A stretch of 50,998 nucleotides of DNA from an uncultured Acidimicrobiia bacterium (GTDB taxonomy: Bacteria; Actinomycetota; Acidimicrobiia; Spongiisociales; UBA4744). This document shows, piece after piece, positions 10,749-50,998 of the stretch. The number at the start of each line of letters is the position of its first letter. The stretch's first letter is position 1. The stretch lies in NCBI GenBank assembly GCA_964633745.1, contig CAZWHZ010000004.1, positions 1 to 50,998 on the forward strand. Direction: 5' to 3'. Under the pieces are notes generated by a model. The model was not told where the DNA came from and did not search any database. It worked only from the letters and a program-made list of their open reading frames with translations. Both the position numbers and the translations under genes were made by a program.

Positions 10749-11308
10749 GAGCAGCTCCCTCCTTGCATCGGAGCCCATATGTTCCGTCCCGATACTTCCG
10801 TCTCGGCCAGGCGACGGCCAATCCGGTCTGTGGGATCCGCGTCCGACCAAATCGATATCGTTACGACCTTCCCCTCGCTCGGCGTCCCTCCCGCCGACCC
10901 CTGTGTCGCGAACAGCGGTTCCGACGATGCGTTGACCACATCGTCGATGACCGTACGCCATGCCGATCCGCCATCGGAGGATCGTTCGAGCGTTCCGTCC
11001 GTCAACCTGTAGATGATGTGCTGCTGGGACGTCTCGGCTCCTGCATATGCGCGGGTGGTGAAGTCCAGCGTGTTAGAGGTGGTGCACGGCAACGGCTCGT
11101 AGATCGCGTCGGCAGATCGAAGTTCCCGGCTGATTTGCCTGAGAACGAGACGGGAACTGTCGTTCGACGCGGCAACCCCTTGGAAGTCCTTCGTCACTGT
11201 GAAGCTCGTCGACAGGGCGGTTCCGAACACTGCCGCAACCATCACCATGAGGGCCATGGCGATCAAGAGCTCGATCAGGCTGATACCCTTGTCATTCATG
11301 CCTTTCAT
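10745..11308 (-). CDS. Prepilin-type N-terminal cleavage/methylation domain protein (PilW/GspJ-like minor pilin)
   Basis: 187 aa. MKGMNDKG|ISLIELLIAMALMVMVAAVFG has a short basic leader, Gly at -1, Glu at +5 and a hydrophobic helix about 20 residues long. ATG overlaps the upstream stop (ATGA). Confidence 0.8.
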   Translation of the reverse strand: MKGMNDKGISLIELLIAMALMVMVAAVFGTALSTSFTVTKDFQGVAASNDSSRLVLRQISRELRSADAIYEPLPCTTSNTLDFTTRAYAGAETSQQHIIYRLTDGTLERSSDGGSAWRTVIDDVVNASSEPLFATQGSAGGTPSEGKVVTISIWSDADPTDRIGRRLAETEVSGRNIWAPMQGGSCS

Positions 11309-27285: not shown

Positions 27286-27875
27286 TCGTCGAGCCGCTTC
27301 CAGCCGATCCAGAACCGCTGACCGACGGTGATCCACACGAGAACAGCCATCGCCCACAACATCGGTTCGACCTGCCCGAACAGAACCCCCGCGCCGAACA
27401 AGATCAGACGTTCCGCCCTTCCCATGAGCCCCCCACGTCCGTCGGCGCCACCCATCTCCACCTTTGCCCTCAGGTATGAGATCAGAAGCGAACCACCCAG
27501 CGAGACCGAGCACAGGGCGACCAGAGTCGGCTTGTCGGCGACGGCCAGAGCCAGTCCGGTCCACATCGCCGTCTCCTCGATTCGATCTGTCACCGAGTCC
27601 AGCAGTGCGCCCTTCGCCGAGTCGGTCCCCCGCACACGCGCAACCGCACCGTCGAGCGCGTCGATCGCTGATCCGATGAGCACGATGCCAACGCCGACGC
27701 GCAATCGCCCCATTCCTATGAGGACAGCGCCGGCGAGTGCGACAGCCAACCCAAACAAGGTGACATGCCAGGCTCGAACCCCGATTCTGGCAAGCGCCTT
27801 GCCGATAGGCGCAAGCAGCACGTTGGCCCTCCGGCGGGCTTTCAACTCGATCATGGGCTCAGCAACGTACCACAC
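27282..27875 (-). CDS. pgsA: CDP-alcohol phosphatidyltransferase (phosphatidylinositol-phosphate synthase-like)
   Basis: D-x2-DG-x2-AR...G-x3-D-x3-D motif (DALDGAVARVRGTDSAKGALLDSVTDRIEE), and a multi-TM protein. Start is uncertain: GTG 27875 or ATG 27854. Confidence 0.85.
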   Translation of the reverse strand: MWYVAEPMIELKARRRANVLLAPIGKALARIGVRAWHVTLFGLAVALAGAVLIGMGRLRVGVGIVLIGSAIDALDGAVARVRGTDSAKGALLDSVTDRIEETAMWTGLALAVADKPTLVALCSVSLGGSLLISYLRAKVEMGGADGRGGLMGRAERLILFGAGVLFGQVEPMLWAMAVLVWITVGQRFWIGWKRLDE

Positions 27876-27912
27876 CGCAGCGACGCCAGGATGAGGGCCG
27901 AGATCCCGCCAC

Positions 27913-27918
27913 TAGAAT
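27913..27918 (+). promoter_or_regulatory. Candidate -10 element (TAGAAT) for the EF-G-like gene
   Basis: TAnnnT hexamer in the divergent pgsA/EF-G-like spacer, 24 nt upstream of GTG 27942. AGGAGG lies at 27933-27938. Confidence 0.3.
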
Positions 27919-27941
27919 CGTCCGAAACACCAGGAGGTCAT

Positions 27942-37646: not shown

Positions 37647-38591
37647 GTGAGCAGAGTAGGTCTTATCCTCGGGGGTGGAGGCGTAACCGGCGCATCCTTT
37701 CATCTCGCGGCATTGCTCGCGCTGGAAATGGCAACCGGGTGGGATCCCACCACGGCCGACGTCATCATCGGTACTTCTGCTGGTTCGTTTGCTGCCGCGG
37801 TGGTTCGCTCGGGCAGCCTCTCTTTGGACAGCATCGTCCGCCCAGGAGAACGGGAAGAGGACGTTGAACGGCGCATCCGCGCGTGGATCTACAAGAAGAA
37901 ACCCCTGAACGGGGTCGGTCGTTGGTTGCGGCACGGAATCCTCCCCGGTCTGCGGCACCCCGGCGTTACGTCGCTGCTCGGTGCGCCTGGACGCTTCGAT
38001 CCATCGGGAATCGGAGACTGGGTTGCCTCCCAGGCCCCGTCCATCGCCGACAGCTGGCCGGATCGACCGACTGTCGTGGTCGCCTACGGTCTCGAGGACC
38101 GCCGCAGAATGGCGTTTGGCACGACCGACGCCCCCGATGTGACGCTCCGTGATGCCGTGTCGGCCTCCTCCGCGGTGCCGGTACTCTTCGACCCCCACAT
38201 CATCAAGGGCAAGAGCTACGTCGATGGGGGGGTCGCTTCGGGAACCAACGCCGATCTCGTTCTCGGCAACCCCGAGCCACTCGACCTGCTCTTGATCCTT
38301 GCACCGATGGCAGCGGAAGCTCAGAGGAGCGGTGCCCTCTTCTACGAAGCCGTGTTCGACCGTGTTGGACGCTCTGCGCTTCACGATGAACTCGAGGCGG
38401 TGGCAACGGTGTGGCCAGACACCGACACACTCGTGCTTCGTCCAACCTCAGCCGTACTCGCCGCCATGCGGCCCAATCCGATGGATCCGGCGCGTGCGGT
38501 GCCGACTTTCGTGCGCACGCTGGCGTCGCTCCGCTCCCGACTCGCCCGGGCCGAGGTGTGGCAGGTTCTCGAGCGTCACCTGGTCGCCTGA
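37647..38591 (+). CDS. Patatin-like phospholipase
   Basis: 314 aa. Oxyanion GGGGVTG, nucleophile elbow GTSAGS (GxSxG), catalytic Asp in YVDGGV. GTG start 14 nt after the preceding ORF. Confidence 0.85.
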   Translation: MSRVGLILGGGGVTGASFHLAALLALEMATGWDPTTADVIIGTSAGSFAAAVVRSGSLSLDSIVRPGEREEDVERRIRAWIYKKKPLNGVGRWLRHGILPGLRHPGVTSLLGAPGRFDPSGIGDWVASQAPSIADSWPDRPTVVVAYGLEDRRRMAFGTTDAPDVTLRDAVSASSAVPVLFDPHIIKGKSYVDGGVASGTNADLVLGNPEPLDLLLILAPMAAEAQRSGALFYEAVFDRVGRSALHDELEAVATVWPDTDTLVLRPTSAVLAAMRPNPMDPARAVPTFVRTLASLRSRLARAEVWQVLERHLVA

Positions 38592-39571
38592 GGGATCTCC
38601 TCCAGCCACGCTGCCTTTTCCTTTTCTCCCGCAAATGAAGCCTCGATCGATGACCGCGCGATCGAGGCGACATTCTCCTCCGTCAGTCCCAGTGCGGTCG
38701 CTGCTGCAACGTAGTTGTCCACGATGTACCCCCCGAAGTAGGCGGGGTCGTCGGAATTGATCGTGACGACGGCGCCGGCATCGAACAGGCGCTTCAGGTT
38801 GTGTTGCGCCAGCTTCTGAACCACCTGAAGCTTGAGGTTCGAAAGAGGGCACATCGTGAGGGGGATCCGCTCCTTGACGACCCGGTCGAGGAGCGCCGGG
38901 TCCTCGTCGATCCTCACCCCATGATCGATCCGTTCGGCGTGGAGGAGGTCCAATGCCTCCCGGATGTACTCCGGAGGGCCTTCCTCCCCTGCGTGCGCGA
39001 CGACGTGAAGTCCTTCGTCGCGTGCTCGGGCAAACACACCGGTGAACAGTGACGGAGGTCGACCCGTCTCCGATGAGTCGAGCCCGACGCCAATGATCTT
39101 CATCCGGTGACGAAGGCCATCTTCGAGAGTCCGCATCGCCGCCTCTGGGCTGAGATGGCGAAGGAACGACAGGATCAGTGCAGCCGAGACACCAAGATCC
39201 GATGCCTCCTCCACGGCCCTGTGGAGCCCCGAGATCACAACATCGAAGGGGATGCCCCGGTCGGTATGCGTCTGTGGATCGAAGAAGATCTCAGTCCTGC
39301 GCACTCCGTCCGCAGCAGCGCGTTGCAGATACGCCCATGCGAGGTCATAGAAGTCACGCTCGGTTCGAAGGACGGCTGCACCTTCGTAGTAGATGTCGAG
39401 AAACGACTGGAGATCGGTGAATGCATATGCCGCATTGATCTCCTCGACCGTCGAGAAACGCAACGCTACGTCATTTCGCTTCGCGAGTGTCAGCATGAGA
39501 TCCGGCTCGAGCGACCCCTCGATGTGGATATGCAGTTCCGCCTTGGGGAGGCTTCGAACGTAGCTCTGCAC
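38576..39571 (-). CDS. add: Adenosine/adenine deaminase family protein
   Basis: 331 aa. LPKAELHIHIEGSLEP, HAGE, SDDPAYFGG metal and catalytic motifs. The 3' end overlaps the convergent patatin gene by 16 nt. Confidence 0.92.
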   Translation of the reverse strand: MQSYVRSLPKAELHIHIEGSLEPDLMLTLAKRNDVALRFSTVEEINAAYAFTDLQSFLDIYYEGAAVLRTERDFYDLAWAYLQRAAADGVRRTEIFFDPQTHTDRGIPFDVVISGLHRAVEEASDLGVSAALILSFLRHLSPEAAMRTLEDGLRHRMKIIGVGLDSSETGRPPSLFTGVFARARDEGLHVVAHAGEEGPPEYIREALDLLHAERIDHGVRIDEDPALLDRVVKERIPLTMCPLSNLKLQVVQKLAQHNLKRLFDAGAVVTINSDDPAYFGGYIVDNYVAAATALGLTEENVASIARSSIEASFAGEKEKAAWLEEIPQATR

Positions 39572-39592: not shown

Positions 39593-40978
39593 ATGAAACC
39601 CGAATCCTACCCGCAGGTCGTTAGCATCGCTTCCAAGGTGACCACGCTCCTGGTAACGCACGCGACCGTGCTCGTCACGATGGACGAGCACCAAAGGGAG
39701 ATCCCCGATGGCGGGCTCTTCATTCGTGACGGTTGGATCGAACAGGTTGCCCCCTCCTCTGACCTCCCCGCATCGGCGGACGCCATCCTCGATCTGACCG
39801 ATCATGTTGTTATTCCCGGCCTGGTGAATACTCACCACCACCTGTACCAGACACTGACGAGGGCATACGCACAGGACTCGGAACTCTTCGATTGGCTCAC
39901 GACGCTGTACCCGGTGTGGGCCAAGATCACCTCCCAGGATGTCAATGTCTCTGCGCGTCTCGGATTGACGGAACTCGCCATGAGCGGGTGCACCACCTCC
40001 TCCGATCATCTCTACCTGTTCCCCAACGACTCTCGACTCGACGACGAGATCGACGCTGCCGGGCACGTCGGCCTCCGATTCCACGCGGCGAGAGGTTCGA
40101 TGAGCCTCGGTCAGAGTGCCGGCGGCCTGCCTCCCGACTCGGTGGTTGAGGACGAGGAGGAGATCCTGAAGGACACACGCCGGGTGATCGAGACGTTCCA
40201 CGATCCCAAGCCCGGCTCGATGCTGAGGGTGGTCGTCGCCCCGTGTTCTCCATTCTCGGTCACCCGGGACCTGTTGCGGGAGTCGGCAGCACTTGCCCGC
40301 CACTACGGTGTCACGCTCCATACCCATCTTGCCGAGACGATCGACGAGGAGGCATTCTGCGTAGAGCACTTCGGCATGCCACCTCTCGCCTATGCCGAGA
40401 GTGTCGACTGGGTAGGACCGGAGGTGTGGTTCGCCCACGCGGTGCACATGTCCGAACGTGAGATCGCTCGCATGGCCGACACAGGCACGGGCGCCGCCCA
40501 CTGTCCGGCGTCGAACATGCGCCTGGGATCCGGCATCGCACCCGTCGCCGAGTATCTGGACGCCGGTGTTCGCGTTGGCCTCGGTGTCGACGGCTCCGCT
40601 TCGAACGACGGCAACGACCTCATCGGTGAAGCACGACTTGCCCTCTTGCTCGCACGCGTTCGGAGACAAGGCATGATGCCCGTACGGTCTGCGCTCGAAC
40701 TTGCCACGATCGGGGGGGCACGCGTGCTCGGAAGGGATGACATCGGGACCCTTTCGGTCGGGAAGGCAGCCGACTTCGCAGCGTTCGACGTGAATCGTGT
40801 CGAGTACGCGGGCGCCCAACACGATCCGGTTGCCGCCCTCCTGCTGTGCGCATCAACCCGCGCCTCGTATACCTATGTGCATGGGAAGCCCGTCGTCAGC
40901 GAAGGCCATCCCGTCAACTTGGAACTGGAAACGCTCGTGGAAGAGCACAATCGCGCCGCAGCACGGCTCTTCTCATAG
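39593..40978 (+). CDS. COG0402 amidohydrolase (8-oxoguanine/guanine-deaminase-like aminohydrolase)
   Basis: TLLVTHATVLVTMD, VNTHHHLYQTLTRA, HTHLAE, FAHAVH, GVDGSASND: the amidohydrolase metal ligands in the chlorohydrolase/deaminase arrangement. Start is ATG 39593, or alternatively GTG 39638. The first 162 codons of the track ORF run antisense to add and are rejected. Confidence 0.85.
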   Translation: MKPESYPQVVSIASKVTTLLVTHATVLVTMDEHQREIPDGGLFIRDGWIEQVAPSSDLPASADAILDLTDHVVIPGLVNTHHHLYQTLTRAYAQDSELFDWLTTLYPVWAKITSQDVNVSARLGLTELAMSGCTTSSDHLYLFPNDSRLDDEIDAAGHVGLRFHAARGSMSLGQSAGGLPPDSVVEDEEEILKDTRRVIETFHDPKPGSMLRVVVAPCSPFSVTRDLLRESAALARHYGVTLHTHLAETIDEEAFCVEHFGMPPLAYAESVDWVGPEVWFAHAVHMSEREIARMADTGTGAAHCPASNMRLGSGIAPVAEYLDAGVRVGLGVDGSASNDGNDLIGEARLALLLARVRRQGMMPVRSALELATIGGARVLGRDDIGTLSVGKAADFAAFDVNRVEYAGAQHDPVAALLLCASTRASYTYVHGKPVVSEGHPVNLELETLVEEHNRAAARLFS

Positions 40979-41037: not shown

Positions 41038-41066
41038 GAGATCGGGTAGCTCTGCTACCCGATCTC
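41038..41066. terminator. Hairpin at the convergent junction of the deaminase and molybdo-hydroxylase genes
   Basis: GAGATCGGGTAGC / GCTACCCGATCTC: a perfect 13-bp stem with loop TCT. The right arm covers the last codons and TAG stop of the large-subunit gene. Confidence 0.55.
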
Positions 41067-43265
41067 TGCGATGTCCTCCGGGTGAATAGGTAGTCGCGTC
41101 ACCGGCTTGCCCGTTGCGACGCGCACGGCCGCCGCCACCGCGGCCGCCGACGAAATCGACGGGAGTTCCGAGAATCCTTTCGCCCCGAAGGGACCCCAGG
41201 AACTCGGCTGTTCAACAACGATCGCCTCGACCGGTGGCATGTCCTCGATCGTCGGCAAGAGGTAGTCGGTGAACGTCGGGTTCTTGATAGCACCGTTGTC
41301 CAGGATGAGCTCCTCCATGAGGGCCATGCCGAAACCCTGCGCGATCCCGCCCTCTATCTGCCCGATCACCTGCACGGGGTTGAGCGCCTTCCCAACGTCC
41401 TGGGCCGTGTCGATCCTGACCACTCGTACCAGGCCCAGAATCGGGTCGACGTCGACGACCGCCCGGTGGGCGGCGACGCAGAAGTCGACATGGACGTCCC
41501 CTTGCCCACTCTCGTCGGGTTCTTCTGTCGGGGCATGCCGGTAGCGGACCTCGCCGACAATTGGCCCTTCCCCACACAACTCGGGCCAGGTGCCGACCAA
41601 CCTGCCGTTGCGCCACACACCGTCCTCATCCATCTCATCCCCTCCAACCCGCTCGAGGGCTGCGGCGCGCGCCCGGCGGGCAGCCTGCTCGACCGCACCT
41701 CCGGTCATCTGGGTCTGTCGCGATGCCGACGACGATCCGGCGGAGCCGATCTGTGATGTGTCGCCCCAGACGACCTCGACACGCTCCAGACCCAGGACAC
41801 TCCTCGCGATCTGGCCGAGAATGGTGACCATCCCTTGACCAACCTCCGCAGCTGCGGTGTAGACGCGCGCTCCCTGCGGGGTCAGTTCGACTCTCGCGTC
41901 TGCGTAGTCATCGAACGCCTCGGAAAACGCAAGGTTCTTGACTCCGACGGCATACCCGATGCCTCGAACGACCGCGGAAGGCGGAGTTGTGAGACCCGTG
42001 CCGCCTGGCCGTCGATCGGTCTCCTCATCGGGCAATGGGATCGACATCACCGACCGGATGACCTCCTCTGTCGGAAGCGGATCGACGATTCGCTGACCTG
42101 TCGTCGCGAGCACGTCACCGGGACCGATGGCGTTCTTCAATCGGAGTTCCAGTGGATCCATGCCCAGTGCAGCGGCGAGCCTGTCCATCTGTGCTTCATA
42201 CGCGAAACAGACCTGATTGGCACCGAACCCCCGCATCGCCCCCGTCGGCGGGTTGTTGGTACGTACCACATACCCTTCAACGAACACGTTGGGGCAGCGG
42301 TACGGTCCCGCAGCGAAGTACACGGCGTTTGCGATCACGGCCTCGGACGTGTTCGCATACGCACCACCATCCAACACGAGCTTCGCGTCGACCCTGACGA
42401 GCGTCCCGTCAGGATCTGCCTCGTGCCGGTACCACATGTGGGCGCTATGGCGCTTCACATGCCCGACGAAGCTCTCGTCTCGCCCATACACCATCTTGAC
42501 GGGACGCCCCGTTCGCAACGCGAGCATGCACAGGTGGGTGTGCAGGCTGAGGTCCTCTCTGGACCCGAACGCCCCGCCAAGACCCGTCGGGTGAACACGA
42601 AGCTGGTCGGACTCGAGTCCGAGACACCGAACGAGCTGCTCGTGGTCGACATGAATCCACTGCGACGGAGGGTAGAGGTCTACCCCACCAGACCCGTCCG
42701 GGACGGCAAGTCCTGCCTCGGTGCCCAGTGGCGCCTGGTCGATATTCGGCGTCTCGTAGTAGCCCTCGACGACGACTGCGCCGTGCGCTTCGTGGTCGCC
42801 CCGTCTCACCCGCATCTCTCTGAAGATCTCTCCAAGCTCAACCGCCTCTTCGAGATTCGTTGCGGGAGTCAGCGGCTCCACCTCGACACCGATCGCAGCG
42901 GCGGCCGCACGCGCCTGGTCTCGCGTCTCGGCAGCAACCAACGCGACGGCCTCGCCCCAGAAACGGATCTCTCCTTCGGCGAGAACCGGCTGGTCCTGCA
43001 CGATCTGGCCCTGGTACTTGAAACCGGGCACGTCACCCTGTGTGAGGACGGCGACGACCCCTTCCATGTCGAGCGCGGGTGTGACATCGATCGAGATGAT
43101 CCGGGCACGGGGCGCGAACACCCTATGTGTGGCTCCCCACAGCATGGTCTTGGCACTGAGGTCGCCCACATACGCGAATGCCCCCGAGACCTTCGCGGCG
43201 CCGTCCGGTCGTCGAATGGACTCGCCCACACCTCCGCTCACGCGCCTCGATGTTCTCGCCGTCAC
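41055..43265 (-). CDS. Xanthine dehydrogenase-family molybdopterin-binding large subunit
   Basis: 736 aa. Aldehyde-oxidase/XDH a/b hammerhead N-terminus, GAMRGFG motif, C-terminal GAKGFSELP with the conserved catalytic Glu. No CODH AYRCSFR loop. GTG start overlaps the FeS-subunit stop (GTGA). Confidence 0.9.
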   Translation of the reverse strand: MTARTSRRVSGGVGESIRRPDGAAKVSGAFAYVGDLSAKTMLWGATHRVFAPRARIISIDVTPALDMEGVVAVLTQGDVPGFKYQGQIVQDQPVLAEGEIRFWGEAVALVAAETRDQARAAAAAIGVEVEPLTPATNLEEAVELGEIFREMRVRRGDHEAHGAVVVEGYYETPNIDQAPLGTEAGLAVPDGSGGVDLYPPSQWIHVDHEQLVRCLGLESDQLRVHPTGLGGAFGSREDLSLHTHLCMLALRTGRPVKMVYGRDESFVGHVKRHSAHMWYRHEADPDGTLVRVDAKLVLDGGAYANTSEAVIANAVYFAAGPYRCPNVFVEGYVVRTNNPPTGAMRGFGANQVCFAYEAQMDRLAAALGMDPLELRLKNAIGPGDVLATTGQRIVDPLPTEEVIRSVMSIPLPDEETDRRPGGTGLTTPPSAVVRGIGYAVGVKNLAFSEAFDDYADARVELTPQGARVYTAAAEVGQGMVTILGQIARSVLGLERVEVVWGDTSQIGSAGSSSASRQTQMTGGAVEQAARRARAAALERVGGDEMDEDGVWRNGRLVGTWPELCGEGPIVGEVRYRHAPTEEPDESGQGDVHVDFCVAAHRAVVDVDPILGLVRVVRIDTAQDVGKALNPVQVIGQIEGGIAQGFGMALMEELILDNGAIKNPTFTDYLLPTIEDMPPVEAIVVEQPSSWGPFGAKGFSELPSISSAAAVAAAVRVATGKPVTRLPIHPEDIAEIG

Positions 43266-43705
43266 TGCACGCTCCTGACTGCCCTGATGATGGACCCATA
43301 CCCGGTACAGCGACAGATGTTGCCTGCAAGGGACTCGCGGATCTCACCGTCGGTCGGGTGCGGGTTCTGATCGAGGAGGTGCGTGGCGGCGACGACGATT
43401 CCCGGCGTGCAGTAGCCGCACTGGACACCTCCCTCATCGAGGAGTGCCCCTTGCACCGGGGAGAGGCCCGCCTCGGGAGTCAACCCCTCCACTGTGACGA
43501 TGTCGGCGCCCTCGGCATCGAGCCCCAAGACGAGGCATGAGCACACAGGCTGCCCGTCCATCAGGACCGTGCACGAACCGCACTCGCCCTGTTCACACGC
43601 GTCCTTGCTCCCGGTTACTCCAAGGTTCTCGCGCAGGACTCTCAGCAGACTCTGCGCACCATCGACGGCTGTCTCCGTCTCGATCCCGTTGAGTCGGAAT
43701 CTCAT
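43262..43705 (-). CDS. [2Fe-2S]-binding small subunit of the molybdo-hydroxylase
   Basis: 147 aa. Plant-type cluster CEQGECGSCTV and second cluster QCGYCTPG...CRCTGY. ATG 43705 overlaps the FAD-subunit stop (ATGA). The 242-aa N-terminal track extension is out-of-frame overlap with the FAD gene and is rejected. Confidence 0.92.
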   Translation of the reverse strand: MRFRLNGIETETAVDGAQSLLRVLRENLGVTGSKDACEQGECGSCTVLMDGQPVCSCLVLGLDAEGADIVTVEGLTPEAGLSPVQGALLDEGGVQCGYCTPGIVVAATHLLDQNPHPTDGEIRESLAGNICRCTGYGSIIRAVRSVQ

Positions 43706-44493
43706 AGCAAACGCTCCAATGTGCGTCGTGCGATGACGCCTACTCCGTGCCGCCGGTAGCGTGCGGTCGCCCGGTGGTCGGTGATCGGAGATGCCTCTTC
43801 CGACACGAGCCGTTGGAACTCGTCGAGTGCCCCTTCGCTCGGCGATCGTTCTTCGGAGATCATTTCCTCGGCGCGCCGAGCCCTCGTCACCGTCGGCGCG
43901 ACCGAACCGAGCGCGACGCGTGTCCTCCCGTCGGTGAATCGAGCAACGCACACCGATGCGATCGCAATCACCATCGCCGACCGGGTACCGATTTTCGAGA
44001 ATCCCTGCCGCTCGGGGATCTCGGGTGGCAGCTTCACTCCGACGATGAGTTCGTCCGGCAACAGTGCCGTGCGCTTGACGCCGGTGAAGAACTCGTCCCA
44101 GCGCAGCTCCCGGGATCCGCCGACCGATCGCGTCACGATCGTCGCATCGACCGCTGCAAGAAACGGGAGCGCGTCGCCCGCCGGACTTGCCGTCCCGATG
44201 TTTCCGCCGATCGTCCCAACGTTGCGGATCTGGGGTGATCCGACCGTTCGGGCTGCCTCGGAGAGACCTGGCCATCGGCAACGTTCGAGCCGTGCGTATG
44301 TGACCCCGGCGCCGATCCAGTCTTGCCGCATGTCGGCGAGTTCGTCGATCCGACGCAACGCGACCACTCGCGAGGGGCGGCGGTGTCCGAAGTTGACCTC
44401 GACCATGAGATCCGTCCCGCCCGCAAGGCACGTCGTATCGCCATCGAGCGCTTGCACCGCATCGTCGATCGTTGTCGGAAACTCGATGTGCAC
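43702..44493 (-). CDS. FAD-binding medium subunit of the molybdo-hydroxylase (CoxM/XdhB-like)
   Basis: AGGTDLMV, IRNVGTIGGNI, and the C-terminal CO-dehydrogenase-flavoprotein-like region. Start is uncertain. I prefer GTG 44493 (VHIEFPTTIDDAVQAL), which leaves a 62-nt divergent spacer with TAGATT on the minus strand. The track ATG 44580 would overlap the divergent gene. Confidence 0.85.
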   Translation of the reverse strand: MHIEFPTTIDDAVQALDGDTTCLAGGTDLMVEVNFGHRRPSRVVALRRIDELADMRQDWIGAGVTYARLERCRWPGLSEAARTVGSPQIRNVGTIGGNIGTASPAGDALPFLAAVDATIVTRSVGGSRELRWDEFFTGVKRTALLPDELIVGVKLPPEIPERQGFSKIGTRSAMVIAIASVCVARFTDGRTRVALGSVAPTVTRARRAEEMISEERSPSEGALDEFQRLVSEEASPITDHRATARYRRHGVGVIARRTLERLL

Positions 44494-44555
44494 GTTACGC
44501 CCAAATCTAGCGACTCGCCGAACCTGTCCGCCTGCTGCCCGGTAGGGTCCACCCC

Positions 44556-45230
44556 ATGGACATCGATGCGATCCTCGCACAGTGTGAATCGGCGCTCGCA
44601 GAGCCCGGCACGGTCGATCTTGCGGAGCTGGGCTTCTGGAAGGTGGTCGCGAGGCTGAAGCGCGATCCGCAACTCGTAGCCCGCTACGGAAACCGAGTTG
44701 CCACGATCGACCAGCGCGCTCTTGGTCGTTGGGCTCTCGTCATGCTGCCGATCGGGGCCGGCATTGGCGCCATGTCGCTACTCACTGTGGTTGGCCTCGC
44801 CGTCGTGTCGCTCGCCTATTTCGTCGACGCCCCATGGAACGGCATCTGGGTGCTCCTCGGCACCGGCATACTTCTCGGCTCGACACACACACTCGCACAT
44901 TTCATCGTCGGTCGAATCGTTGGGATTCGATTCACCCACTGGTTCATCGGCCGCACTCCTCAGCCGGGCGTCAAGATCGACTACGTCAGCTACCTCGCGA
45001 CACCACCACGAGGGCGCGCCTGGATGCATGCATCGGGCGCACTGACGACCAAGCTGGTCCCGTTCCTCAACCTCGGCGCGGCGTGGGGCTCCCACTCCCC
45101 CGCCTGGACGACTTGGATCCTCCTCCTGCTGGGCGTCGTCATGATCGGGACCGACGTCTTCCTGTCCACGAAGCAGTCCGACTGGAAGAAGTTCCGTCGG
45201 GAGATGAAGTACGCCCACCAGGCGGGCTAG
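44556..45230 (+). CDS. Hypothetical polytopic membrane protein
   Basis: 224 aa. Soluble N-terminal segment of about 60 aa, then 4-5 hydrophobic helices. H-x3-H (HTLAH) lies at a helix start. No family recognised. Confidence 0.6.
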   Translation: MDIDAILAQCESALAEPGTVDLAELGFWKVVARLKRDPQLVARYGNRVATIDQRALGRWALVMLPIGAGIGAMSLLTVVGLAVVSLAYFVDAPWNGIWVLLGTGILLGSTHTLAHFIVGRIVGIRFTHWFIGRTPQPGVKIDYVSYLATPPRGRAWMHASGALTTKLVPFLNLGAAWGSHSPAWTTWILLLLGVVMIGTDVFLSTKQSDWKKFRREMKYAHQAG

Positions 45231-45322: not shown

Positions 45323-46318
45323 CTACATCGTAAGGACGGCTGCCCCGGCAACCAGTCCCTCTCGAAGCTCCAACAGCGCACGGTTCGCATCCTCCAATGG
45401 ATACTCCTGAACCACCGTGGTAATGGGGATCTCGGCTGCGAGCTGCAGGAACTCGGATGCATCCTGCTTCGTGAAGTTGGCAACGCTCCGCAGCTGACGC
45501 TCCAACCAGAGATGCCGATAGTCGAAGGCGGGCATCTCATCGAGGTGAATGGCGTTAATCGCCACCACCCCTCCACGATCGACCGCTCTGAGCGCGTTCA
45601 CAACGACCGAGCCCACTGGTGCGAATGTGACGGCGGCGTCCAATGGAACCGGCGGTCGCTCGTCGTAGCCGCCCGCCCAGACAGCACCCATCTCGATGGC
45701 CCTCGCCCGTTCCGTTTCGGATCTCGTTGCGACGTACACATCACAGCCCCACTGCTGCGCCACCTGGAGGGAGAGCAAGGCGGACGCGCCGAATCCGTAG
45801 AGCCCGAGGCGACCTCCCGGTTGAATGCCTGACACCTTCAGTGCTCGGTAGCCGATCACTCCACCACACAGCAGCGGAGCGACGTCGACATCAGACACGC
45901 CTTCAGGAAGATGAAACGCGTACCCCGCATCGGCTGTCGCCTTCTCGGCATATCCGCCATCGCGGTCCCATCCGGTGAACACCGCCGACGTGCACAGGTT
46001 CTCGCGACCCGACCGGCAGAAGTTGCACCTGCCGCAACTCCCGCCGATCCAGCCAACACCCGCTCGCTCCCCCACGCTCCACCCCTCCACGGCGTCACCG
46101 ACTGCTGCGACCGCACCGACGATCTGATGTCCCGGTATCACCGGAACCCGGTGCGGCTCGATGTCGCCCTCAACCTCCTGGAGGTCGGTACGACACACAC
46201 CGCACGCCGTCACATCGAGCAACAGTTCTCCGGCCATTGGAACAGGATCGTCCGTATGTTCGAGGCGCAGCGGCTGTCGGTCGACTGGAGCCAGTTCGTA
46301 CAGCAGCTGCGCACGCAT
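45323..46318 (-). CDS. Zinc-dependent alcohol dehydrogenase family oxidoreductase
   Basis: CGVCRTDL, PGHQIVG (Gln in the usual GHE position), structural-zinc CGRCNFCRSGRENLC, Rossmann GLYGFGASA. ATG 46318 lies 1 nt after the upstream stop. The 19-aa track extension is rejected. Confidence 0.88.
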   Translation of the reverse strand: MRAQLLYELAPVDRQPLRLEHTDDPVPMAGELLLDVTACGVCRTDLQEVEGDIEPHRVPVIPGHQIVGAVAAVGDAVEGWSVGERAGVGWIGGSCGRCNFCRSGRENLCTSAVFTGWDRDGGYAEKATADAGYAFHLPEGVSDVDVAPLLCGGVIGYRALKVSGIQPGGRLGLYGFGASALLSLQVAQQWGCDVYVATRSETERARAIEMGAVWAGGYDERPPVPLDAAVTFAPVGSVVVNALRAVDRGGVVAINAIHLDEMPAFDYRHLWLERQLRSVANFTKQDASEFLQLAAEIPITTVVQEYPLEDANRALLELREGLVAGAAVLTM

Positions 46319-46319
46319 A

Positions 46320-47789
46320 TCAAAGCTCGGAGAGCAGCCCGGTCTTCTCGTTGAACGCCTCGATGTGACGATCAATTACGTCGACCTCCGACTGAACCGA
46401 TGTCCAGTAGTCGTCGTCGTACCACTGAGCCTGAATCTCCTCGTAGGTCTTGCCCTGCTGCTCGACCCACGTGTAGTACTTGAGGTTGTGGATACGCATG
46501 CGACCTTGGTAGTCGAGTTCGACCATGGCGTCGGTTCCGACACCTCGCAGGTAGCGCTCGAACGCGACGACTGCGTCGTCCCGGGTGAAGGCACCGCGTT
46601 CTTCATTGAGCTCTCTCAGTCGTGACTCATACATCTCGACGGAGTCTGTCGCTACGGTCATCACGACGTCCTGGCCGGTCATCTGGTTCCACTTCGCGAA
46701 CTTGATCGACGACAGCATGTTCGCAACGCTCGATATGCCGAGCTGAGGGAGTTCCTCCACGAAGGATGCGTCCACACCTCGCTCGATCAGGTAGTCCTGA
46801 CCGACCGGCTCGTTGAAGAGGCGCAAGATCTGCATGGTGGCTTCGTCATCGATAGCCGTTACGAAGTCGGTGTTCTTGACATTGTGGATCCACGGGACGT
46901 GCTTGTCGCCGATTCCTTCGATCCTGTGCGCGCCAAACCCGTTCTCCAGCAGCGTCGGGCACTGCAGGGCCTCGCTTGCGACGATCTTGGACGTCGGATA
47001 CTGCTGCTTCATGTAGTCGCCGGATCCGATGGTCCCTGCCGACCCTGTGGTCAGCGCGACACCGCGGTACCGGTCCCCCGGTCCCATGATCTCTTCGAGG
47101 ACCTCGACCATCGCGGGGCCGGTGATGGTGTAGTGCCAGAGGTAGTTGCCGAACTCATCGAACTGATTGAAGATCACGACGTCCTCACCGGATCGACGGA
47201 GTTCCCACGTCTTGTCGAAGATCTCTTTGACGTTGCTCTCCGATCCGGGGGTCGCTATGACCTCGCCTGCGACCTTTGACAACCACTCGAATCGTTCGCT
47301 GCTCATGCCCTCCGGGAGGATGGCGACGGACTCGCACGCGAGCAGATTCGAGTCGTAGGCTCCGCCGCGGCAGTAGTTTCCGGTCGATGGCCACACGGCC
47401 TTCTGGCTGGTTGGATCGAACTGGCCGGTCACCAATCTCGGCACGAGACACCCGAATGCGGCCCCGACCTTGTGCGCTCCCGTCGGGAACCATTTGCCGA
47501 CCAACGTCACGATACGGACCGGAACACCGGTGAGAGCGGACGGGTACTCGAGAAAGTTCACGTCCCCATACCCTCCCCCGCTCGGCACAGGCTCGTTCTT
47601 CCACGTGATCCTGAACAGGTTGATCGGATCCAGGTCCCACAGGCCGACGCTGCCGAGTTTCGCTTTGATCGATTCGGGTACCAGTCCCGGATCGCGCTGC
47701 TGGGCGAATGTCGGAATGATGATGTTGCGCTCGCGCGCCCTCTGAACTGCCCGTCCTAACGGCGCCTCGTGGATGGTGAGGTCGATCAC
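46320..47789 (-). CDS. Fold-type II (TrpB/CysK-like) PLP-dependent enzyme with N- and C-terminal extensions
   Basis: 489 aa. Putative PLP-lysine motif FPTGAHKVGAA at residue ~107, STGNYCRGGA, GSAGTIGSG glycine loop, then a helical tail of about 130 aa. GTG start overlaps the upstream stop (GTGA). Confidence 0.75.
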   Translation of the reverse strand: MIDLTIHEAPLGRAVQRARERNIIIPTFAQQRDPGLVPESIKAKLGSVGLWDLDPINLFRITWKNEPVPSGGGYGDVNFLEYPSALTGVPVRIVTLVGKWFPTGAHKVGAAFGCLVPRLVTGQFDPTSQKAVWPSTGNYCRGGAYDSNLLACESVAILPEGMSSERFEWLSKVAGEVIATPGSESNVKEIFDKTWELRRSGEDVVIFNQFDEFGNYLWHYTITGPAMVEVLEEIMGPGDRYRGVALTTGSAGTIGSGDYMKQQYPTSKIVASEALQCPTLLENGFGAHRIEGIGDKHVPWIHNVKNTDFVTAIDDEATMQILRLFNEPVGQDYLIERGVDASFVEELPQLGISSVANMLSSIKFAKWNQMTGQDVVMTVATDSVEMYESRLRELNEERGAFTRDDAVVAFERYLRGVGTDAMVELDYQGRMRIHNLKYYTWVEQQGKTYEEIQAQWYDDDYWTSVQSEVDVIDRHIEAFNEKTGLLSEL

Positions 47790-49015
47790 GGAATCTCCAG
47801 TCTGTCGATCACTGCCTTTGCGGCATCCAATGTGGGTTCGATCGTGTACGGCTCGGCACCCGCCATGCCCGCGGCGCGCACCGCGGATGCGACGTCCTTG
47901 AGGCCGCTCCCCGTGTTGAGCACGACGACACTGTCCGACTCGGTCAGCACTCCCAGCTCACGCGCCTGAAGAAAGCCTGCGTAGGCGGCGGCACCCGCCG
48001 GTTCGCCGAACACGCCGCTCGCCCGGGCCATCTCCGGAATCGCATCGAGGATCTGATCATCCGACACGGTCACGTACGCGCCTTCCGTTTCCACGACCGC
48101 CGCCATCGCCTTGATGCGGTCGCGAGGAAGGCCGGCCGAGATCGAGTCGGCCACCGTCGTCGCTTCGATCGGCGGCTTGGTCAGCACGTCCTCGCCGTTG
48201 GCCCAGGCTTCGGCGAGGTAATTGCTCCCGGCTGCCTGAGCGCCGATCAATCGGGGCACCCGGCCGATCCAACCGAGTTCGAGAAGGTCCTTGAAGCCTT
48301 TGTGCAGCCCCCCGATGATGCATCCGTCTCCGACGCTCACAACGACGGCGTCGGGCACGTCCCAGCCGAGTTGCTCTGCGATCTCGTACGCCGCGGTCTT
48401 CTTGCCTTCGGTCATATACGGGTTGTAGGCCGTGTTGCGGTTGTACCAGCCGTACTCTCCCGCGACCTCGAGACACAGCTCGAATGCATCGTCGTAGGTG
48501 CCCTGAACCGTGAAGACGGTGGAACCGAACACGAGCAGCTGGGCGATCTTGGCTTGCGGAGCTGACGCCGGTACGAAGATCACGTTTCGCTGAGCGACCG
48601 AGGCACAGACCCCCGCCAGTGCAGCCGCCGCGTTCCCGGTTGATGCCGTCGTGACGACGTCGGCACCGCGTTCCGCCGCCTTCACAACAGCGATGGCACT
48701 CGCTCGATCCTTGAACGATGCGGTCGGCTCCCGTCCGTCGTCCTTGATCCACACACGTGAGTCGACTTCGTACATCGGCGTCCAGCCGATGCTGAGGGGT
48801 GGAACGACGGCGTCCTGTTGAATCGGCAGGAGCGGGCGGTACCGCCACATCGACCAGTCCGAGCCCAGATTGTCTCGATCGACGGTCGTGCGAAGGTCCT
48901 CGTAGTCGTAGACAACGTCGAGGATGCCTTCATTGCCGTGTTCCGGACAGACGTACTCGACTTCGTCCGGCTCGTACACCGTCCCGCAGATGACACAGCG
49001 AAGTCCGATGATCAT
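47786..49015 (-). CDS. Threonine-synthase-like PLP-dependent enzyme
   Basis: 409 aa from ATG 49015, which overlaps the arcC stop (ATGA). N-terminal C-x2-C...C-x2-H ribbon (CVICG...CPEHG), PLP-lysine motif TASFKDRAS, TASTGNAAAALA, and a C-terminal SGLKD. The 65-aa Arg/His-rich track extension is rejected. Confidence 0.8.
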   Translation of the reverse strand: MIIGLRCVICGTVYEPDEVEYVCPEHGNEGILDVVYDYEDLRTTVDRDNLGSDWSMWRYRPLLPIQQDAVVPPLSIGWTPMYEVDSRVWIKDDGREPTASFKDRASAIAVVKAAERGADVVTTASTGNAAAALAGVCASVAQRNVIFVPASAPQAKIAQLLVFGSTVFTVQGTYDDAFELCLEVAGEYGWYNRNTAYNPYMTEGKKTAAYEIAEQLGWDVPDAVVVSVGDGCIIGGLHKGFKDLLELGWIGRVPRLIGAQAAGSNYLAEAWANGEDVLTKPPIEATTVADSISAGLPRDRIKAMAAVVETEGAYVTVSDDQILDAIPEMARASGVFGEPAGAAAYAGFLQARELGVLTESDSVVVLNTGSGLKDVASAVRAAGMAGAEPYTIEPTLDAAKAVIDRLEIP

Positions 49016-49965
49016 CTCGTGATCCGTGTCCCTGTCTCGCCTCGCACCGCGCGCTCGATGTTCTCGGGGTTCGTGATGATGACCTCGGTGCCGCCGGCGT
49101 CGAGGTACATGATCGCCGCCTCGATCTTGGGCGCCATGCTTCCTTTGGAGAAGTGCACACCTTCGGCGAGGTACTGTCTCGCCTCCTCGACCGTCATCGA
49201 GTCCACCCAACGCTGTTCAGGGGTCCCCCAGTCGAGGGCGACCTGCTCCACCGCGGTTGAGATGAGCAGAAGATCTGCGCCAAGCTCCCCTGCCAGGAGC
49301 GCGGACGCGCGGTCCTTGTCGATCACCGCGGGAACACCTTTGAGCCAGCCGCCCGGTGCGGAAACAACGGGGATCCCACCACCGCCGACACAAATGACGG
49401 CCATGCCTCGTCCGAGCAGATCGCGAATGGCGTCGATCTCGACGATCCGTTTCGGCTGGGGAGACGCAACGACCCGCCGCCAGCCGCGGCCGGCGTCCTC
49501 CACGACCTCCCATCCGTCAGATATGCGTCGCCGTTCGGCGGTCTGTTCGTCCATGAACGATCCGATCGGCTTCGAGGGCTGATCGAAGGCAGGATCGGCA
49601 GCATCAACTTCGACCTGGGTGACCACGGTCGTGACGGTCTTGTCGATTCCAAGGGCGAGGAAGTCGTTGTAGAGGTTCTGTTGGAGGGCGTACCCGATCG
49701 CACCTTGGGTGTCGGCGCCACAGACGTCGAGGGGAACTTCGTGCAGTTCTCCCCGCGCGAGCTCGGATCGACGGAGTATGAACCCGACCTGCGGGCCGTT
49801 CCCGTGGGTGATCGCGACATCCCACCCTTCCTTGATCAATTCCGCTATGTGGTGGTCCGTCTCCCCCGCGGCTATGTACTGATCCTCGACTGTGGAATGC
49901 TCGCTGTCTCTGATCAACGAATTGCCGCCGATCGCCACCACCGCCAGTTTCGTGTTGCTCAACAC
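49012..49965 (-). CDS. arcC: Carbamate kinase
   Basis: 317 aa. VVAIGGNSL, THGNGPQVG, GGGGIPV, DKDRASALLA amino-acid-kinase / carbamate kinase motifs. Confidence 0.92.
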   Translation of the reverse strand: MLSNTKLAVVAIGGNSLIRDSEHSTVEDQYIAAGETDHHIAELIKEGWDVAITHGNGPQVGFILRRSELARGELHEVPLDVCGADTQGAIGYALQQNLYNDFLALGIDKTVTTVVTQVEVDAADPAFDQPSKPIGSFMDEQTAERRRISDGWEVVEDAGRGWRRVVASPQPKRIVEIDAIRDLLGRGMAVICVGGGGIPVVSAPGGWLKGVPAVIDKDRASALLAGELGADLLLISTAVEQVALDWGTPEQRWVDSMTVEEARQYLAEGVHFSKGSMAPKIEAAIMYLDAGGTEVIITNPENIERAVRGETGTRITR

Positions 49966-49991
49966 CGTCTCCTTCCGGAGGATGGCTCGAC

Positions 49992-50966
49992 CTACATGGT
50001 TAGTGCCATCACCGCTTTCTGTGCGTGCAGCCTGTTCTCCGCCTGGTCGAAGACGACGCTGTGTGGGCCGTCGATGACTCCGTCGGTGACTTCGACGTTC
50101 CGATCTGCCGGTAGGGGATGCATGTAGATGGCATCCTCGTCGGCAAGAGCCATCCGGCGTTCGTCGGTGATCCAGTCCGTGTACTTGTCGCCGATCGCTT
50201 TCGACTCCACTTCGTCGGTGGTGGTCAGCATCGCGCCCCAGCTCTTCGCGTACACCACGTCGGCACCACGGAACCCTTCATCGAAGTCCTCGATGATCTC
50301 GAACGAGCCGTGTGACCTGCGTGCGTTCTCCTCGGCTTGTGCGACGACCTCTGGCATCAGTTTGAACTCTGGCGGACGGGTCAACCTGACGTTCATCCCG
50401 AATCGCGTCGCCAGCAGGACGAGGCTCTGTGGGACACTCAGCGGCTTTTGGTAGCTGGATGCGTATGCGTAGCTCACATTGATCGTCCTGCCGCGAGGAT
50501 CACCCTTCTTCTCGATGATCGTCATCAGGTCGGCGAGGATCTGATGCGGGTGGTACATCTCGCACTGCATGTTGAGTACAGGAACCCTGCTTGCCTCCGC
50601 GACAGCTCGTTGGTACGCGTTGCCGACCCCCCAGTCGACCTGACGGATGGCGATACCGGCGCTGTAGCGACCGAGAATCTCACCGATTTCGGTGGCGGTG
50701 TCCCCATGACTGATCTGTGTCGTACGGGACTCCATGAACATTGCGTGACCGCCGAGCTGTGCCATCCCGGCTTCGAAACTCGCCCTCGTCCTGGTGCTCG
50801 AGAAGAAGAACAGCATCGCGAGCACTTTGTCGCGCAAGTACGCATGTGGCTCACCGAGCGCCTGCTTGCGCTTCAGATCGAGCGCGACATCCAGCACCGT
50901 GTCGATCTCGTCCTTGGTCCACTCCTGGGTCGTGATCATGTCCCGACCCCTCAATCCCGTCTGCAT
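49992..50966 (-). CDS. ygeW: YgeW-type (knotted) carbamoyltransferase
   Basis: 324 aa. STRTR carbamoyl-phosphate motif, GNAYQRAV, NMQCEMYHPHQILADL, YAYASSYQKPLSVPQSLVLLATRFGMNV, ADVVYAKSWG, YMHPLPADR. These blocks match my recollection of E. coli YgeW rather than OTC/ATC (HCLP is replaced by HPLP). AAGGAG is 7 nt upstream of the ATG. Confidence 0.82.
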   Translation of the reverse strand: MQTGLRGRDMITTQEWTKDEIDTVLDVALDLKRKQALGEPHAYLRDKVLAMLFFFSSTRTRASFEAGMAQLGGHAMFMESRTTQISHGDTATEIGEILGRYSAGIAIRQVDWGVGNAYQRAVAEASRVPVLNMQCEMYHPHQILADLMTIIEKKGDPRGRTINVSYAYASSYQKPLSVPQSLVLLATRFGMNVRLTRPPEFKLMPEVVAQAEENARRSHGSFEIIEDFDEGFRGADVVYAKSWGAMLTTTDEVESKAIGDKYTDWITDERRMALADEDAIYMHPLPADRNVEVTDGVIDGPHSVVFDQAENRLHAQKAVMALTM

Positions 50967-50980
50967 CGTTGGCTCCTTGC

Positions 50981-50998
50981 AGTCTTCAGTCTTCAGTC
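50981..50998. repeat. Tandem heptamer (AGTCTTC x ~2.6) at the window edge
   Basis: AGTCTTCAGTCTTCAGTC lies directly upstream (minus-strand sense) of the ygeW SD. It is truncated by the end of the window. Confidence 0.6.

Follow-up and report, generated by a model that had tools for sequence, protein, structure and literature searches.

A carbamoyltransferase–carbamate kinase operon with two uncharacterised PLP enzymes from an uncultured Acidimicrobiia bacterium, probably the distal part of a gene cluster for reductive uric-acid degradation

The reductive (2,8-dioxopurine) pathway of urate degradation was established in 2025 (Li et al., PMC12507026; Liu et al., bioRxiv 10.1101/2025.04.24.650524; together with a commentary). 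Urate is converted to 2,8-dioxopurine either by XdhD-YgfM or by the selenium-dependent DOPDH, and YgfK carries the reduction further. A hydantoin is opened by HyuA to give 2,3-diureidopropanoate, one ureido group of which is cleaved by YgeW in a phosphate-dependent reaction, with YqeA making ATP. The other ureido group is hydrolysed by YgeY, and YgeX converts 2,3-diaminopropionate (DAP) to pyruvate and ammonia (PMC12507026; 10.1101/2025.04.24.650524). Here we describe a related system in a stretch of 50,998 nt (referred to as the window) from an uncultured Acidimicrobiia bacterium, contig CAZWHZ010000004.1. The window ends in an operon of five minus-strand genes, which code for a carbamoyltransferase (CTaseA), a carbamate kinase, two pyridoxal 5'-phosphate (PLP) enzymes (ThrCl, which is threonine synthase-like, and the 489-residue PLP489) and a zinc alcohol dehydrogenase (ADH). 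This operon is probably the distal module of a reductive uric-acid degradation cluster in which ThrCl and PLP489 replace YgeX. The assignment to the pathway is well supported; which substrates are used, which ureido group each transferase attacks and what the PLP pair does are inferred from homology and gene context.

What is new is a variant of the urate pathway with two conserved, uncharacterised and mis-annotated PLP families and with a second transferase in place of a hydrolase. Literature searches revealed no paper describing such a ThrC-like/CysK-like variant. In the published neighbourhood analysis, every protein with PF00185 was scored as ‘YgeW’ and every one with PF00291 as ‘YgeX’, so that the variant presented here would not have been separated.

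Family assignments were made with the curated cutoffs of NCBIfam and with Pfam on the open reading frames (ORFs) of the window. CTaseA (324 aa; 49992..50966, minus strand as all genes of the operon) matches PF02729 and PF00185 (OTCace_N and OTCace). An AAGGAG ribosome-binding site lies ahead of its ATG, and the window ends 32 nt upstream of the gene. The carbamate kinase (317 aa; 49012..49965) is identified by TIGR00746 and NF009007. ThrCl (47786..49015; PF00291) is 409 aa long when counted from the ATG, the longest ORF reaching up to 49210. PLP489 (46320..47789) is a PALP/CysK-like PLP enzyme of 489 aa with the fold of CysK, the O-acetylserine sulphhydrylase (OASS). The Zn-ADH (45323..46318; TIGR02822) has 331 aa counted from the ATG, with a longest ORF up to 46375. 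As read directly from the sequence, the TAG of CTaseA is followed by 26 nt containing GGAAGGAG and then by the GTG start of the kinase. The kinase stop and the ThrCl start overlap in ATGA (49015–49012), the ThrCl stop and the PLP489 start in GTGA (47789–47786), and PLP489 and the ADH are joined as TGA-T-ATG, with a 1-nt spacer at 46319 and the ADH ATG at 46318. The gene boundaries are matched by independent calls on public contigs with identical proteins (L082). A scan for promoters and terminators gave no promoter-like or terminator-like site inside the five-gene block and nothing above chance, which is weak evidence. The preliminary description of this DNA had reported the five ORFs at these coordinates as tightly coupled genes for a carbamoyltransferase, a carbamate kinase, a ThrC-like enzyme, a TrpB/CysK-like enzyme and a zinc ADH; both the junctions and the family-level assignments are confirmed.

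The genes beyond the window end were read from a JGI contig with an identical CTaseA (L081) and from three relatives with proteins 80–97% identical, L086, L148 and L001, the last being labelled as a metagenome-assembled genome of an uncultured Acidimicrobiia. The order up to CTaseA is XdhD-like enzyme, selenium-dependent xanthine dehydrogenase (Se-XDH), SsnA-like protein, YgfK, BMP-type ABC transporter and a second carbamoyltransferase (CTaseB). The XdhD-like molybdenum enzyme has FeS and FAD subunits, and its Mo subunit is 41% identical to E. coli XdhD. The fused FeS-Mo enzyme, evaluated in L086 (an 86% relative), passes the selenium-dependent XDH model TIGR03311 (841.4 bits, cutoff 830.45). 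YgfK (L081:570-3989) passes TIGR03315 (921.9, cutoff 835.3) and is 35% identical to E. coli YgfK over 1114 aa. On the contig with the identical CTaseA it is located about 6 kb upstream of that gene. The preliminary description, which saw only the window, had taken ygfK to be replaced; instead, a true YgfK lies just past the window end, together with the SsnA-like, Se-XDH and XdhD-like genes. The SsnA-like gene directly upstream of YgfK encodes 340 aa and reaches 255 bits against the SsnA cutoff of 444, covering model positions 58–346 only. This short form occurs at L148:8965-9987, L081:1-556 and L100:2129-3151, and seems to be without the terminal regions that E. coli SsnA has at both ends. 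The ABC transporter is divergently transcribed and is absent in L148 and L001.

Conservation of the operon was analysed in the 80 best PLP489-centred loci, which come from several phyla and include up to 8 kb of flank on each side. ThrCl is adjacent to or near PLP489 in 59 of the 80. A carbamate kinase is present in 26 loci, CTaseA or YgeW in 22, D-hydantoinase (HyuA) likewise in 22, XDH in 12, CTaseB in 11, YgeY in nine, SsnA in eight and YgfK in four. Hydantoinase, YgeY and SsnA representatives from PLP489 loci of other phyla pass curated cutoffs. When only loci of at least 12 kb are considered, 39/54 contain at least one uricolytic marker and 25/54 at least two. CTaseB and YgeY alternate: among the 22 loci with CTaseA or YgeW, CTaseB is found in 10, YgeY in eight and both in one, and four of the five loci with neither end at a contig or locus edge. 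A reciprocal set of 80 YgfK-centred loci also revealed recurrent PLP489 and/or ThrCl. Two clusters (L145, L156) combine a true YgeW (65–67% identical to that of E. coli) with carbamate kinase, PLP489 and ThrCl. The conserved unit is (CTaseB or YgeY)-CTaseA-carbamate kinase-ThrCl-PLP489, without the ADH. Thus, of the five genes for which the preliminary description had proposed a neighbourhood survey, four are co-conserved across phyla and the ADH is not, being present in just one of the 80 loci (L001).

Public records name the transferase ornithine or N-acetylornithine carbamoyltransferase (OTC, AOTC), ThrCl threonine synthase and PLP489 cysteine synthase. These names would suggest an ordinary arginine- or agmatine-deiminase operon, or biosynthetic genes that are neighbours by chance, and the raw scores of CTaseA are indeed highest with OTC and AOTC models. 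All of these scores are below the curated cutoffs: 251.1 against 280.85 (TIGR00658) and 265.5 against 306 (NF001986) for OTC, 256.7 against 288 (NF003384) for AOTC, and 219.9 against 500 (TIGR04384) for putrescine carbamoyltransferase (PTC). The YgeW models are not reached either (175.3/500 for TIGR03316, 180.3/453 for NF005538). CTaseA does not have the DxxxSMG ornithine loop, reading AKSWGAM where OTCs read DVW.SMG, and has HPLP, not the HCLP of OTCs. The 12-residue 80s-loop insertion of AOTC, PIEFNLGTVMDG, is absent as well, and the window contains neither arcA nor aguA. With YgeW, CTaseA has the motifs QI[SA]HG[DE]T, NxQC[DE], [AP]KSW and YMHxLPAD in common. It is 34–37% identical to YgeW and 72 residues shorter (324 versus 396 aa), five segments of YgeW being missing (residues 1–16, 141–151, 286–301, 336–341 and 377–396); the absent insertions fall after CTaseA residues 126, 257 and 289. 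The AF2 model of CTaseA (pLDDT 61, pTM 0.62) was not good enough to search for related folds or to look for the knot.

A neighbour-joining tree (38 sequences, 313 columns, 300 bootstraps) was calculated with a sparse set of references, namely E. coli YgeW, ArgI and PyrB, E. faecalis YgeW, PTC, archaeal and bacterial OTCs including that of P. furiosus, and X. campestris AOTC; the two YgeW proteins served as positive references for membership in that family. The core CTaseA clade (14 sequences) and the YgeW clade (five sequences), outside of which CTaseA lies, each have 100% bootstrap support. Both are joined, together with a C. botulinum/Halanaerobiales group that includes L047, in a clade with 81% support. 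This joint clade groups with AOTC at 99%, apart from OTC and PTC. The only OTC grouping measured, that of CTaseA with the P. furiosus enzyme, received 0%. A true PTC (E. raffinosus, 571.5 bits with TIGR04384) is located among the OTCs. Judged by these sequence criteria, CTaseA is not an OTC or PTC and does not belong to the YgeW family; it is best regarded as forming a short sister clade next to YgeW, with the role presumed to be the same. The phylogeny proposed in the preliminary description thus places CTaseA outside the OTC and PTC clades. Its label ‘YgeW-type’ holds for the grouping with YgeW and AOTC; it does not hold for membership, given the cutoffs, the length and the missing insertions. 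Tree and cutoffs agree with its broader view of a non-canonical relative of the E. coli ygeW-yqeA cluster, with transferase and kinase as ATP module for a ureido-amino acid. A divergent OTC-like gene was also seen directly 5' of sbnA, a gene of 2,3-diaminopropionate biosynthesis, on the B. thuringiensis plasmid pBTHD521-6 (L171); this pairing hints at a carbamoylated DAP product in a siderophore or natural-product cluster.

The carbamate kinase passes TIGR00746 (367.2, cutoff 358.25) and NF009007 (383.5, cutoff 266) and is 47% identical to E. coli YqeA over the full length. CTaseA holds the YgeW-like slot beside this kinase also in L081, L086 and L148. The second transferase, CTaseB (317 aa), is located directly upstream of the window end, as seen on near-identical contigs. 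Of two models for aspartate carbamoyltransferase (ATCase), it passes TIGR00670 (254.5, cutoff 236.95) and fails NF002032 (229.5, cutoff 263). All carbamoyl-phosphate ligands are kept, as is the alpha-carboxylate residue R167. The ligands of the aspartate side-chain are lost (K84 replaced by Y, R229 by K or L, Q231 by R or V, the alignment near 229 being uncertain), and CTaseB carries an insertion of eight residues relative to ATCase. By sequence, CTaseB is a paralogue that derives from ATCase and has an altered pocket for the side chain. This also bears on the fate of YgeY, which had been thought to be replaced by the ThrC-like, TrpB-like and ADH genes: it is CTaseB, outside the window, that stands in for it. 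A tandem repeat (GACTGAA, 2.7 copies, 50980-50998) is found in the CTaseB-CTaseA intergenic region, just 5' of the ribosome-binding site of CTaseA.

ThrCl shows an ambiguous relation to threonine synthase on scores alone. It passes the old model TIGR00260 (176, cutoff 167.1), which speaks for the biosynthetic reading, and fails NF006050 (289.5, cutoff 303); its closest solved relatives are threonine synthases (about 140–166 bits). Alignment with five solved threonine synthases (2ZSJ, 6CGQ, 2D1F, 1UIM, 1E5X) revealed NPxR.EG and STGNT in all five, where the window ThrCl reads NPYMTEG and STGNA. Among 47 members derived from our loci in which the motif was found, Arg is replaced by Met or Thr (Leu in one) and Thr by Ala, and 120/120 database homologues have Met and Ala, so that 167 sequences overall are without the threonine synthase residues. 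We take the Arg and Thr in question to be the phosphate ligands R160 and T88 of the T. thermophilus enzyme; the positions themselves come from the alignment. If these residues do bind the substrate phosphate, their loss means that ThrCl is not a threonine synthase. An N-terminal CxxC...CxxH zinc-ribbon motif is present in all 120 database homologues.

PLP489 matches the CysK models weakly, with 80.5 bits against a cutoff of 350.95 (TIGR01139) and 76.2 against 344.15 (TIGR01136). Its AF2 model (pLDDT 74, pTM 0.83) has OASS/CysK structures as best Foldseek matches, at about 22% identity and a target TM of about 0.78. Near-invariant in the family are the PLP lysine Lys107 (PTGAHK), the Asn loop PSTGNY and the phosphate/Gly loop GSAGT, and extensions of about 100 residues are present at both the N- and the C-terminal end in comparison with CysK. 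Relatives were found in at least 599 species-level genomes, with 67–77% identity across phyla; the hosts include Chloroflexota, Acidimicrobiia, Desulfobacterales, Myxococcota, Burkholderiaceae, Halanaerobiales and Terriglobia. Complete genomes with both ThrCl and PLP489 are represented by CP070708.1 and CP070688.1, among others. An exhaustive profile-free search gave about 350 representative clusters at E ≤ 1e-30. The distant full-length relatives (32–61% identity) do not reach any curated NCBIfam family and give sub-threshold CysK/CBS/SbnA matches only, and a look-up of cluster members for cultured hosts yielded no cultured organism and no informative names. With CTaseA below every arginine-type cutoff, ThrCl without the Arg and Thr of threonine synthase, PLP489 far below the cysteine synthase cutoff and the synteny with YgfK, SsnA, XDH, HyuA and YgeY kept across phyla, the arginine-type or chance assembly suggested by the public names is largely refuted and hardly credible.

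YgeX itself was not found within 8 kb of PLP489 in any of the 80 loci. BLASTP with E. coli YgeX gave 44 bits for ThrCl and 30 bits for PLP489. The DpaL models TIGR03528 and NF006058 did not appear among the matches listed for ThrCl (the best 25 of 34) or among the six for PLP489, while the positive controls, E. coli YgeX and a homologue from L100, scored 651 and 336 bits. On these scores, neither protein is related to YgeX beyond the superfamily level, and PLP489 is the main candidate to replace it.

Several observations were made around PLP489 in other loci. In 26 loci, all of Anaerolineae type (L020, L041, L065 and others; for example L041:5411-6367), a GT2 polyprenyl-phosphate glycosyltransferase gene (PgfS/ArnC-like, sub-threshold) is inserted between ThrCl and PLP489, and in five other loci an RNase-Z-like gene of the metallo-β-lactamase fold occupies this gap. 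Neither has an obvious role in purine catabolism. An ORF of 192 aa (u192; L065:9578-10156 and 22 other loci) without NCBIfam match is located directly 3' of PLP489, usually ahead of D-hydantoinase, and is confined to Anaerolineae-type loci. As a small conserved partner 3' of PLP489 we considered a 224-aa ORF of L100; it was rejected, as it recurs only in some YgfK loci, with a weak partial match in one PLP489 locus, and may encode a regulator. The PLP489 homologue of L172 (11366-12346) is called as 327 aa, is 79% identical over residues 1–326 and then ends, and represents either a truncated gene or an assembly error.

Taken together with the pathway of 2025, these data allow a route to be proposed. 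Purines would be converted to urate by the in-window add, 8-oxoguanine deaminase and PucCDE-like XDH. Reduction of urate and opening of the pyrimidine ring would be carried out by the upstream XdhD-like enzyme or Se-XDH, YgfK and the short SsnA-like hydrolase, and a hydantoinase, not found in the cluster of this lineage, would provide 2,3-diureidopropanoate. CTaseA would phosphorolyse one ureido group to carbamoyl phosphate, most likely the 3-ureido (side-chain) group, in view of its kinship with the side-chain transcarbamylases. The alpha-N-carbamoyl group is where ATCases act, and CTaseB, as an ATCase derivative, would phosphorolyse the remaining, alpha ureido group, a task of the hydrolase YgeY in E. 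coli. From carbamoyl phosphate and ADP, the kinase would form ATP, NH3 and CO2, giving up to two ATP per urate in comparison with one in E. coli. Finally, DAP would be converted to pyruvate and ammonia by ThrCl and PLP489. This assignment of the two transferases agrees with the order proposed by Liu et al. (10.1101/2025.04.24.650524). The preliminary description had considered the substrate unreadable from the sequence; by way of the 2025 pathway, 2,3-diureidopropanoate can now be named with reasonable confidence.

A number of points weigh against this assignment. The two studies of 2025 are at odds over which ureido group YgeW cleaves (PMC12507026; 10.1101/2025.04.24.650524). The placement of CTaseA rests on a neighbour-joining tree with few reference sequences, and CTaseB does pass one ATCase model, TIGR00670. 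The need for two PLP enzymes is unexplained. A tblastn search for HyuA, YgeY and YgeX in the window, L081, L086, L148 and L001 gave no match in the cluster of about 35 kb, so that, with HyuA missing in this lineage, one ring-opening step is unaccounted for. Nine long loci contain PLP489 with none of the screened markers nearby. In a complete Chloroflexota genome (L172, CP070688.1), a free-standing GntR-CTaseB-CTaseA-kinase-ThrCl-PLP module is located beside an adenine deaminase gene, with no YgfK, SsnA or XDH within 10 kb. Lastly, the metagenome contig L100 contains PLP489 and a DpaL-family protein (NF006058, 336 bits, cutoff 276) in one YgfK/SsnA cluster; PLP489 and YgeX are therefore not strict alternatives. 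This DpaL-family gene (L100:7224-8378, also in L113) is divergent, passing NF006058 and failing TIGR03528. It adjoins a gene of about 596 aa (L100:8362-10152) which matches only the N-terminal 400 or so residues of YgfK.

The L172 module, with a GntR regulator of its own, and the missing HyuA would also be accounted for if the GntR-CTaseB-CTaseA-kinase-ThrCl-PLP489 module acted on a ureido compound not derived from urate, for example from pyrimidines or amino acids, and were tied only loosely to purine genes. Along the same line, a contig with 80% YgfK identity (L087, Ga0315542_1001301) keeps the purine genes of the upstream part together with the ABC transporter, the ADH and the 224-aa ORF that adjoins the ADH in the window, but not the genes from CTaseB to PLP489, which indicates that the module behaves as a unit that can be inserted or deleted. 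Even so, uricolytic markers accompany PLP489 in most of the longer loci, the module is located between YgfK and XDH in the window lineage, CTaseA-like and YgeW proteins hold equal slots in bona fide uricolytic clusters, and even the L172 module has adenine deaminase as its neighbour. We regard a non-urate substrate as quite improbable.

A different question is whether the PLP pair, within the same cluster, acts as a diaminopropionate ammonia-lyase at all. It might instead eliminate urea from albizziin (3-ureidoalanine), carry out β-replacement of DAP to serine or cysteine with subsequent dehydration, or handle stereoisomers as a racemase and a lyase. The CysK/OASS fold and the Asn loop of PLP489 are typical of β-replacement enzymes that form aminoacrylate, two enzymes are conserved where one would do for a DAP ammonia-lyase, and L100 has a DpaL-family gene in addition. 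Furthermore, D (R) configuration has been proposed for the pathway intermediates, and their stereochemistry is under discussion in the 2025 pathway literature. On the other hand, neither a urease nor any other gene for handling urea was noticed in the loci, release of urea would waste carbamoyl phosphate that two transferases and a kinase would capture, and DAP has to be disposed of, yet YgeX is absent from all 80 PLP489 loci. Another reaction of the pair is thus rather unlikely, and we retain replacement of YgeX by ThrCl and PLP489 as the probable arrangement.

The last gene of the operon is of a different kind. The ADH passes TIGR02822 (adh_fam_2; 377.6, cutoff 283.5) and is a lineage-specific passenger, co-transcribed here and not part of the module. 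It remains beside the 224-aa ORF in L087, where the module is missing. A final reduction step by the ADH had been part of the route first suggested, and is unsupported, since the gene is not co-conserved. The 224-aa ORF (44556..45230, plus strand), located between ADH and XDH, has no Pfam or NCBIfam match and shares 25 nt, on the opposite strand, with the longest ORF for the FAD subunit of XDH. It is kept with the ADH in L001 (84%) and L087 (73%), and hydrophobic stretches, read by eye, suggest a membrane protein.

The molybdo-hydroxylase, COG0402 deaminase and add that had been noted as neighbours of the operon are confirmed. The first is a PucCDE-like XDH of three subunits (41055..44580, minus strand; FAD subunit 43702-44580, 2Fe-2S subunit 43262-43750, Mo subunit 41055-43265). 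Its Mo subunit scores 739 bits against the pucD cutoff of 784, the FeS subunit is of the pucE/XdhC type and the FAD subunit belongs to FAD_binding_5. The subunits are syntenic in L001 with 80–90% identity, and the enzyme likely feeds the pathway by converting hypoxanthine and xanthine to urate. The COG0402 gene (39650..40978, plus strand) encodes an 8-oxoguanine deaminase (NF006055, 671 bits, cutoff 532), which forms urate from 8-oxoguanine. As the SsnA of the pathway it is ruled out, scoring 118 against 444 with the SsnA model. The adenosine deaminase gene add (38576..39571, minus strand; NF006850, 517 bits, cutoff 419) marks the edge of the purine cluster. At this boundary a convergent ORF of 314 aa (37647-38591, plus strand), by the look of it a patatin-type phospholipase, shares 16 nt with the 3' end of add. 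Below about 38.5 kb, only housekeeping genes were found (thrS, citrate synthase, fusA-like, ruvAB, queA, tgt, secDF, relA, hisS, aspS and alaS). Between hisS and relA, two minus-strand ORFs (9315-10961 and 11305-13194; 548 and 629 aa) have no Pfam match at E ≤ 1e-6 and could represent new proteins or, in this high-GC DNA, ORFs called too long. An exact-protein look-up of ORFs 27765-29987 and 9315-10961 gave no record, the longest-ORF start likely differing from the called start.

The reductive urate pathway was worked out in 2025 in gut bacteria only. The present data point to a widespread environmental version, in which three steps known from E. coli are handled by non-orthologous proteins. 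As three families are mis-annotated, metagenome surveys for ygeW, ygeX and ygeY would miss or mislabel this capacity. Use of CTaseB in place of YgeY would double the substrate-level ATP obtained from the ureido groups, and the pairing of an ATCase-like CTaseB with a side-chain-type CTaseA offers a separate, comparative line of evidence as to the ureido group that YgeW cleaves first. ThrCl and PLP489 are concrete candidates for new enzyme activities. More speculatively, and with odds that we put below even, they may constitute a new two-enzyme, possibly heteromeric PLP system with a chemistry so far undescribed in urate degradation: a β-lyase or β-replacement enzyme for ureidoalanine or DAP combined with a second PLP step, or a pair that resolves stereochemistry, with PLP489 founding a new and highly conserved family of the CysK fold. 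Combined with ureido cleavage that is phosphorolytic throughout, by two transferases and with two ATP per urate, such a system would then predominate in the anaerobic catabolism of urate by environmental Chloroflexota, Acidimicrobiia, Desulfobacterota and others.

Among described systems, the clusters of E. coli (xdhD-ygfM, ygfK, ssnA, hyuA, ygeW, yqeA, ygeY, ygeX), E. faecalis and C. sporogenes follow the same overall logic and contain several orthologues. Orthologues or relatives in common with these clusters are a true YgfK, the SsnA-like protein, the XdhD-like enzyme with Se-XDH, the YqeA-like kinase and a YgeW-related transferase coupled to the kinase. The locus differs in having no YgeX, YgeY or HyuA, in CTaseB, in ThrCl and PLP489, in a BMP-type ABC transporter instead of a UacT-type permease and in the extra ADH.

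At the protein level, YgeW (PDB 3Q98, knotted) is the sister group of CTaseA in the tree, with four common motifs and an equal genomic slot; it differs by the low identity and by the N-terminal 16 residues, the insertions and the C-terminal 20 residues, none of which CTaseA has. The solved structures that score best with CTaseA are X. campestris AOTC (3KZC/3L02; 192 bits, 39%) and P. furiosus OTC (1PVV; 213 bits, 41%). The AKSWGA motif and the 99% superclade are common to CTaseA and AOTC, whereas the 80s-loop insertion, DxxxSMG, HCLP and an arginine-pathway gene context are absent from CTaseA. On the C. botulinum plasmid pCN1 (NZ_CP063818.1), a transferase of the CTaseA family (49.7% identical, annotated as ‘ornithine carbamoyltransferase’) is located after dpaL-hydA-ygeY, which is the slot of YgeW in E. 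faecalis. The purine cluster there also has XDH genes and an 8-oxoguanine deaminase, and over L167 (2939-33910) it is an apparently complete uricolytic cluster with two XDH sets and without YgeW. In contrast to the Acidimicrobiia locus, dpaL (YgeX), hydA (HyuA) and YgeY are kept, and neither a ThrC-like/PLP489 pair nor a carbamate kinase is present in the 31 kb viewed.

Threonine synthase resembles ThrCl in the fold-type II PLP scaffold, the SFKDR lysine motif and the length of the catalytic part, and ThrCl differs by the replaced Arg and Thr, the extra N-terminal Cys-rich zinc-ribbon motif and the purine-catabolic context. With CysK/OASS, PLP489 has the fold, the PLP lysine, the Asn loop and the phosphate loop in common, and it is set apart by the low identity, the terminal extensions and its score of 80 bits against a cutoff of 351. 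The likeness to YgeX/DpaL is one of position, the ThrCl-PLP489 pair occupying its genomic place. Finally, as in the arginine deiminase pathway, a ureido group would be phosphorolysed to carbamoyl phosphate, from which carbamate kinase makes ATP; the substrate and the transferase clade are different, arcA is absent and, in the present system, two transferases would feed one kinase.

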